Program-made: the position numbers and the translations under genes
The notes under the pieces: generated by a model
Seen by the model: the letters and a program-made list of their open reading frames with translations, nothing else
What the model was told of the DNA's origin: nothing
Database searches by the model: none
NCBI GenBank assembly: GCA_039802605.1
Contig: JBDRWW010000019.1
Coordinates: 1 to 10,895 of the forward strand
DNA: 10,895 bases
Origin: a candidate division WOR-3 bacterium
GTDB lineage: Bacteria; Hydrothermota; Hydrothermia; LBFQ01
Direction of reading: 5' to 3'
Shown: piece after piece, positions 749 through 762 of the stretch
Layout of the letters: every line of letters begins with the position of its first letter
Numbering within the stretch: the first letter of the stretch is position 1

Positions 749-762
749 AATATATAGTCTCT
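749..762. other. Predicted donor site of the IS110 bridge-RNA recombinase (AATATA-TA-GTCTCT)
   Basis: 749-756 matches guide AAUAUAUA. 754-762 is complementary to guide AGAGACUAU of the ncRNA 3' loop. Flanked by inverted TCC/GGA. Confidence 0.75.

Follow-up and report, generated by a model that had tools for sequence, protein, structure and literature searches.

A candidate donor site for a two-loop guide RNA and an IS110-type recombinase in the circular genome of a small temperate virus of a hot-spring bacterium

Introduction

What purpose does a 14-bp intergenic site serve when it is matched, on opposite strands, by both guides of an RNA loop encoded in the same small viral genome? Such a site, at positions 749-762 of the DNA analysed here, had been noticed in an original prediction as a self-site of the 3' loop of a putative bridge RNA, and integration at this site had been proposed to act as a promoter switch. 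The obvious point of comparison is IS621, for which a bridge recombinase and a bridge RNA have been described (Durrant et al. 2024, PMC11208160; structures 8wt6 and others). The loop geometry on which the prediction relied, with one guide per strand, an overlapping core and a 3' loop that binds the donor, agrees with the passages of the IS621 paper on this subject (PMC11208160), and the site at 749-762 fits it.

IS110-family enzymes are also found in larger settings. Passages of Hu et al. (bioRxiv 10.64898/2026.08.14.744561) describe large cargo-bearing IS110 elements and raise the idea that some IS110 circles may replicate on their own. According to passages in two further articles (PMC11437467, PMC7058167), the filamentous phages Nf/MDA of Neisseria and Zuza8, Zuza27 and phiOH16 of Thermus carry IS110-family transposases, and the terminal IS110-family enzyme of filamentous proviruses is taken to be the integrase. 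The temperate phages IN93 and Tsatsa have attP modules consisting of a tyrosine integrase and a tRNA (passages of PMC11437467).

The viral genome and its ties to the host

The stretch of DNA analysed (the window) is a contig of 10,895 nt, and its first 127 bases recur at its end, so that it represents a circle of 10,768 bp. This contig is C19 in an assembly of 23 contigs and 1.65 Mb, and every long ORF of the window is carried on the minus strand. PHROGs and Pfam scans identified a tyrosine integrase (1459-2175; PHROGs phrog_1, 6e-18), a packaging-ATPase-like protein (2498-3058), a holin (6681-6881) and an M78-type peptidase. The 3' end of the tyrosine integrase gene is overlapped by a complete tRNA-Gln(UUG) gene (1423-1496), and a conventional integration module probably has its attachment region here. 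On the basis of this gene content and the tRNA-Gln overlap, the window represents a small temperate virus of a hot-spring bacterium, with a complete circular genome of 10,768 bp. Zot or Rep matches were found neither among the 16 ORFs scanned with Pfam nor among the 21 scanned with PHROGs, and searches with the 285-aa and ATPase proteins found no relatives of the virus. Two minus-strand ORFs lie between the site at 749-762 and the RNA gene. The 117-aa ORF (345-698) follows the site as its nearest downstream gene on the sense strand and had no match in Pfam and PHROG scans, and the 103-aa ORF (18-329) has its 3' end where the RNA gene begins.

The DNA of a 150-aa gene at 963-1415 is 86% identical to the host contig C2 (40537-40977), which ties the virus to this host, and 89% identical to genome G002. 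This segment looks like a host-derived insert adjoining the tRNA gene, and a contig of run X6 joins position 961 to 1414 and lacks the gene. Arrays of 9-nt units of the types TTTTACCAG and CCAGTTTTG at 3880-3920 and 9318-9389 look like iterons; the latter array is located directly downstream of the recombinase gene. A motif of the type CCGGGTAT(T)A is present three times (773-790, 801-811 and 871-881, one copy inverted) in the same intergenic region as 749-762, and these copies may be operator sites. A contig from the same host genus (L002) carries a distant recombinase and a one-module RNA (L002:2146-2439) as well as a homologue of the 138-aa protein of the window (4683-5099; 27% identity, E 4e-6), and may represent a related virus.

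The recombinase

The gene at 9370-10596 (minus strand) encodes a very divergent IS110-family recombinase of 408 aa of the DEDD plus Ser type. The protein matches PF01548 (IS110 DEDD domain) at 1.2e-9. In an alignment of 16 sequences, comprising the window protein and 15 relatives, D8, E83, D125 and D128 are kept in at least 90% of the sequences, and S286-G287 is invariant (16/16). PF02371 (Transposase_20) is matched by 11 of the 15 relatives at E values up to 0.01, but not by the window protein. A profile of the family matches IS621 (E 7.7e-19) and ISCro4 (E 1e-18) with both domains covered, and aligns to the N-terminal domain and to residues 170-318 of IS621. The 408-aa frame is open and the catalytic set is intact.

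Close relatives are scarce. In a word-based search of 5.8 billion proteins the recombinase found only itself, and an exhaustive HMMER search of 1.84 billion representatives yielded 27 proteins at E values up to 0.001, with P0003 as the best full-length relative (39% identity). The two closest recombinases, P0003 and P0004, are known only as proteins on short JGI contigs of 4.5 and 5.0 kb, and a further relative, P0002, is encoded on an NCBI contig of 12.9 kb. No relatives were detected in the viral collection or in the JGI metagenome contigs scanned, and tblastn searches with the window recombinase and with P0007 found nothing in 50,697 deposited phage records. The recombinase/RNA system is present as a single copy in the host assembly. 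One contig of run X6 skips 675 nt (9390-10066) inside the recombinase gene; its depth is 45.8 compared to about 100-135 elsewhere in the virus, about a third of the local depth, and the skip may be a deletion variant.

Single-module relatives and their targets

A scan of species-representative genomes revealed 18 recombinase loci in Aquificota or neighbouring hot-spring lineages, of which 13 have one RNA module upstream of the recombinase. The consensus of this module consists of a lower helix, an internal loop with about 10 nt per side and a central hairpin, and compensatory changes are observed in 13 of its 18 predicted pairs. The 10-mer on the 5' side of the internal loop is identical to the DNA immediately left of the conserved CTTACA element end in 7 of 13 cases and differs by one position in 2 more. 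For the 10-mer on the 3' side, agreement with the right flank extends to 9 of 10 positions in L025, L031 and L036 and to 8 of 10 in L038; all four guides share a mismatch at the first position, which is derived from the donor. The guides of the target loop thus covary with the flanks of inserted copies, and these matches identify the module as a loop that binds the target by means of two 10-nt guides with an overlap of 5 nt. Target choice in the relatives looks RNA-guided.

Three elements have mapped ends: L025 (266-9049, 8,784 bp), L031 (9802-16996, 7,195 bp) and L038 (9811-18232, 8,422 bp). L025 contains genes for a Zot-type ATPase (2503-3564) and a G2P-type Rep (8034-9035), which identify it as an inovirus-like prophage, and its recombinase is located at the end opposite Rep. 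The recombinase bounds whole mobile genomes in its clade. No donor guides were found in these three elements, and the donor junction is conserved across all of them, which indicates that a donor loop is not a feature of the clade. When the ends of L025 are joined, a promoter consisting of TTGACA, 17 nt and TACAAT (11/12) is formed across the junction; a strong junction promoter is present in only one of the three relatives with mapped ends. In L036-L038, the guide module is found at the far (right) end (L036:1931-2014, L037:1908-1991, L038:18116-18201), which in the integrated copy places it about 8.3 kb away from the start of the recombinase, and has its own preceding TATAAT and a T-rich tail. 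The distance between the RNA gene and the crossover site is thus not fixed in the clade.

For L002, the site predicted from its two guides was sought in its genome; there was no match below 2 mismatches, and 9 matches were obtained versus 13 for the control. By eye, L032 has a 5' guide that agrees with its own flank at only about 7 of 10 positions, but at 10 of 10 with the left flank of L041, a locus in the same assembly with a recombinase truncated to 209 aa; this may reflect action in trans. The 3' guide of L003 is complementary, rather than identical, to 9-10 nt located about 30 nt upstream of the module (reverse complement); this stretch could be the right half of a donor or serve intramolecular pairing.

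The guide RNA and its two modules

The 189 nt upstream of the recombinase gene (10597-10785, minus strand) are predicted to form two stem-loops, each with an internal loop. The fold has an energy of -78.6 kcal/mol and a z-score of -6.56, and none of 200 shuffled sequences folded as well. Constrained folds, in which the guides are kept unpaired, give modules 1 and 2 the same architecture. No Rfam family matches the RNA; a mir-593 match with an E value of 0.14 was dismissed as spurious.

Module 1, the 5' loop (10697-10778, minus strand), is assigned to target binding by the covariance model of the clade, by its fold and by its host match. A covariance model built from the 13 relatives alone finds it with 22.8 bits (E 0.0066), or with an E value of 0.00035 when filters are switched off. 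Its guides are located at 10749-10758 (AGGCTATAAT) and 10717-10726 (TGAACATTAT). The last 5 nt of both guides are mutually complementary, so that the pair defines a single 15-mer, AGGCTATAATGTTCA. The two conserved guide cores of the clade are on swapped sides in loop 1, the 5' side having TATAAT and the 3' side ATTAT. With a palindromic TA core, swapping both guides in both loops would give the same products.

Module 2, the 3' loop (10625-10688, minus strand), is a candidate donor-binding module according to its fold, which comprises an 11-bp outer stem, an internal loop with 10-nt guides and a central hairpin with a GAAA loop. Under the clade model it reaches only 8.5 bits (E about 1). A pattern scan of the viral collection for loop-2-like modules with free guides gave 0 matches. 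In metagenomes, 39 matches to the pattern were all rejected; they had no recombinase nearby, and none resembled the module.

The predicted host target

The 15-mer defined by loop 1 was essentially derived from the register of loop 2 before the host was searched. It occurs exactly once in 1.64 Mb of host DNA, with 0.0033 occurrences expected under a first-order Markov model. This unique exact match, the predicted host target (G000 C2:203622-203636, corresponding to L004:5023-5037), is located 19 nt beyond a glycosyltransferase gene and within the last 18 codons of a convergent gene encoding a CitMHS-type transporter. The nearest related genome has one mismatch in the 15-mer. When the host target and the viral site are aligned by their 5' guides, TATA is common to both at positions 5-8, and this is a plausible exchange region. 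Loop 1 thus independently finds a unique host site in the same register and with the same TATA centre, which makes loop 2 and 749-762 a coherent donor pair. The best site for loop 2 in the host is 13 nt long, which is the chance level for 1.6 Mb.

The candidate donor site at 749-762

All strings and coordinates given for the site proved correct. Positions 749-762 read AATATATAGTCTCT and are flanked by TCC (746-748) and GGA (763-765), and the two loop sides named as guides, 10665-10674 and 10641-10650 on the minus strand, read AAATATATAT and AAGAGACTAT. Both sides of the loop match the site on opposite strands, AATATATA being identical to the plus strand at 749-756 and AGAGACTAT to the minus strand at 762-754. 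While this split-match geometry stands, the overlap is not confined to a 2-nt TA as had been assumed, and is in fact 3 nt (754-756). Similarly, the guides named do match, but their limits have to be shifted, as the architecture of the relatives places the two 10-mers at 10664-10673 (AATATATATT) and 10640-10649 (AGAGACTATT). In these limits each guide agrees with the site in 9 of its 10 positions, and the longest uninterrupted stretches are 8 and 9 nt, respectively. The guides overlap by 6 positions at the viral site versus 5 in loop 1, which means that the 3' guide is one nucleotide out of register; the viral site has 14 bp versus 15 bp for the target of loop 1. The TATA shared with the host target is at 753-756.

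The site has no tRNA similarity, its top strand is antisense to the recombinase gene, and it is separated from the RNA gene by about 850 nt that include the two ORFs. The region around it had been called the largest intergenic gap; 699-962 is indeed the longest stretch without a long minus-strand ORF, but only if a 55-aa ORF at 695-862 is ignored. No guide half-sites flanking the RNA and the recombinase were found in the virus, which thus lacks what a compact insertion sequence residing inside it would need. Nor does the virus contain a target-like sequence at which inversion or deletion could take place; split matches to loop 1 reach 11 nt at most. No relic of the conserved junction motif of the clade was found in the window (14 loose matches versus 17.4 expected).

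A match of this quality is rare by chance according to three estimates. Under permissive rules, which accept any substring of at least 5 nt from either loop side with an overlap of 1-4 on both strands, split matches of at least 14 nt to loop 2 occurred in 13 out of 1000 dinucleotide-shuffled sequences; the number rose to 48 when a match to either loop was counted. When the 10-nt guides alone were considered, an equally good match was found in 4 of 3000 shuffled viruses, and scrambled guide pairs matched the real virus as well in 11 of 3000 cases. The second-best split match to loop 2 in the real virus is 9 nt. Several 8-nt matches to the 5' guide of loop 2, a low-complexity run of A and T, are present in the virus. 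The 3' guide matches the circle over at least 8 nt only once outside the RNA gene, namely at 749-762, and the match of the 5' guide adjoins it on the other strand in the right order.

Integration and promoters

Among the 24 listed of 89 loose ends in contigs of four public runs, none is located at 755/756, and a contig of the source run bridges 749-762 intact. An occupied host target was not found in 11 related genomes, 9 of which had a match. G000 has an uninterrupted host locus, and alignments of this locus span the target in G002, G001 and G004. Integration at this position would replace the last 14 residues of the transporter by 11 unrelated ones, so that nothing would be rebuilt.

The promoter on which the proposed switch is based consists of a minus-strand TATAAT hexamer, which is present at 807-812 (ATTATA on the plus strand). 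In a consensus scan this hexamer has no -35 partner, which leaves the switch unsupported. It is further weakened by a promoter-like site that precedes the RNA (TTAAAA, 17 nt, TAGAAT; 10811 to 10783, minus strand), a consensus match that ends 4-5 nt before the first stem of the RNA, inside the 3' end of the 103-aa ORF. The RNA may thus not depend on anything upstream of 749-762. In the region upstream of the RNA, 3 promoter-like sites were found versus 4.1 expected in shuffles. The only pair that spans 749-762 is weakly promoter-like (8/12).

Donor site, coincidence, switch or relic

The preferred reading, to which a probability of roughly 60% is assigned, is that the whole circle is the donor, with 749-762 as its donor site and loop 1 selecting the host target. 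Since this site lies inside a circle without flanking half-sites, the whole virus would be the donor molecule. Module 1 would read the 15-bp host site (G000 C2:203622-203636) and module 2 would bind and read the 14-bp viral site; recombination at the TA or TATA centre common to both would then insert the entire virus into the host site. That module 2 binds 749-762, that recombination takes place at all and where the strands would cross are inferred. The reading draws on the rare match of both guides on opposite strands, the intact catalytic set, the fold of the RNA, the compensatory changes and guide-flank covariation in the relatives, the unique host target with its shared TATA, the whole mobile genomes bounded by the recombinase in the clade, the variable distance between RNA gene and crossover site, and the lack of half-sites around the RNA and the recombinase. 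With the guides swapped, the same half of the target would be next to the recombinase end in the predicted provirus as in the relatives, which would add only about one bit of support. Points against this reading are the tyrosine integrase already present in the virus, the failure of the scans to find a loop-2 homologue, the low score of loop 2 under the clade model, the relatives with one module and no donor guides found, the shifted register of the 3' guide, the distance and antisense orientation of the site, in which it differs from both IS621 and the relatives, the contig that bridges the site intact together with the loose ends listed, the uninterrupted host locus, and a transporter end that integration would not rebuild.

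The match at 749-762 could instead be a coincidence in AT-rich DNA, with loop 2 pairing elsewhere or nowhere and the site being an ordinary regulatory spacer. This alternative is unlikely, albeit to be taken seriously, as the 5' guide is an AT run that has several 8-nt matches in the virus, and the permissive shuffles give 1.3% for loop 2 and 4.8% for either loop. It is also in line with the lack of significance of loop 2 under the clade model, with the failure to find a loop-2 homologue or a junction at the site among the loose ends listed, and with the fact that the relatives manage without a donor loop. The estimates with 10-nt guides are lower, however, at 0.1-0.4%, and the next best match of loop 2 in the virus has only 9 nt. 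Coincidence would further have to account for the non-repetitive 3' guide having one match of at least 8 nt that is adjoined by the 5' guide match in the right order, and for a TATA centre common to this site and an independently found host target. The proposed promoter switch assigns the site a different role: integration at 749-762 would cut an operon consisting of the 117-aa ORF, the 103-aa ORF, the RNA and the recombinase from the promoter at 807-812 and thereby silence the system in the lysogen. The site is suitably placed for such a role, having the intergenic region on one side and the first of the co-directional genes on the other, IS110 circles have been reported to rebuild a promoter across their junction (passages of PMC11208160), and the relative L025 has a junction promoter. 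Nevertheless, the switch is rather improbable, given the missing -35 partner of the hexamer, the promoter-like site directly before the RNA, which resembles the TATAAT preceding the module in L036-L038, and the restriction of a strong junction promoter to one of three relatives with mapped ends.

Least of all is it to be expected that the system is a captured or decaying IS110 relic, with 749-762 as a fossil circle junction or a site of other use and the tyrosine integrase carrying out integration. Against this stands the open frame of 408 aa with all catalytic residues. Loop 1 matches a host site perfectly over 15 nt, which a decaying system would not be expected to retain, and the virus lacks a target-like site for inversion or deletion, with a best loop-1 split match of 11 nt. 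Consistent with a relic are the complete tyrosine integrase and tRNA-Gln module of the virus, the X6 contig, with roughly one third of the local depth, that skips 9390-10066 in the recombinase gene, and the one mismatch to the site in each guide.

A broader proposal can be made, which is tentative and considered somewhat less than even in probability: a temperate virus that is not filamentous and infects a deep-branching thermophile would employ an IS110-type recombinase together with a two-loop bridge RNA as a second, programmable integrase. The circle as a whole would be the donor, with the donor site uncoupled from the RNA gene and both guide pairs mirrored compared to the single-loop relatives, as a palindromic TA core would allow.

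Comparison with known systems

The system of the window shares with IS621 a recombinase with DEDD plus Ser and an RNA located directly upstream of the recombinase gene. The RNA is predicted to have, as in IS621, two stem-loops with internal loops, of which the first is for the target and the second putatively for the donor; the two sides of a loop are identical to different strands, the 5' side to the top and the 3' side to the bottom one, and overlap in a core. In contrast to IS621, the window protein, with about 25% identity at best to anything seen, has no match to the Pfam family Transposase_20. The guides have 10 nt each and define a target of 15 bp, whose centre is palindromic and of the TA type, as opposed to CT. 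A further difference is the distance of about 850 nt, including two ORFs, between the site and the RNA gene, the site's top strand being antisense to the genes; a donor junction that adjoins the RNA gene on its upstream side, shares its orientation and rebuilds its promoter is absent from the window. Finally, the element is a 10.8-kb virus, whereas IS621 is a 1.5-kb insertion sequence with hybrid half-sites.

For the IS110-family transposases of filamentous phages, Kawai (2005) is cited in the literature. The relative L025 resembles the Nf and phiOH16 proviruses in having Rep at one end and the recombinase at the other, together with an inovirus gene set. No guide RNA is described for Nf/MDA and the Thermus phages in the passages that deal with them (PMC11437467, PMC7058167). 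The window differs from Nf and phiOH16, as portrayed in these passages, by having no Zot/Rep match and by containing a packaging-ATPase-like gene, a holin and a tyrosine integrase. Its integrase with a tRNA gene at the 3' end is similar to the modules of IN93 and Tsatsa as outlined in PMC11437467, and this module is separate from 749-762. With the elements of Hu et al., as far as the passages on them go, the window shares the mobilisation of many kilobases by an IS110 system. Those elements are reported to carry mostly plasmid-derived cargo and to have half-matched boundaries, whereas the circle of the window is viral, harbours structural, lysis and packaging genes and has a full candidate donor site in one piece. 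Literature searches for bridge RNA together with prophage and integrase, and together with inovirus, showed no report of a virus integrating by means of a bridge RNA.

Implications for bridge recombination

The relatives, inovirus-like and other elements of 7-9 kb with only a target loop and a fixed, conserved donor junction, would represent a naturally occurring arrangement in which RNA guides the choice of the target but not that of the donor, and they raise the question of how a donor is recognized when no donor loop is visible. For the window, two predicted sites are at hand, which makes the donor-site claim directly testable. Enzyme engineers may also take an interest in the clade, which is thermophilic and very divergent and uses 10+10-nt guides for a 15-bp target. 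If the donor reading is true, a donor site need not adjoin the RNA gene, and bridge recombination, beyond insertion sequences and plasmid-like cargo, would also include the integration of an entire virus capable of lytic growth.
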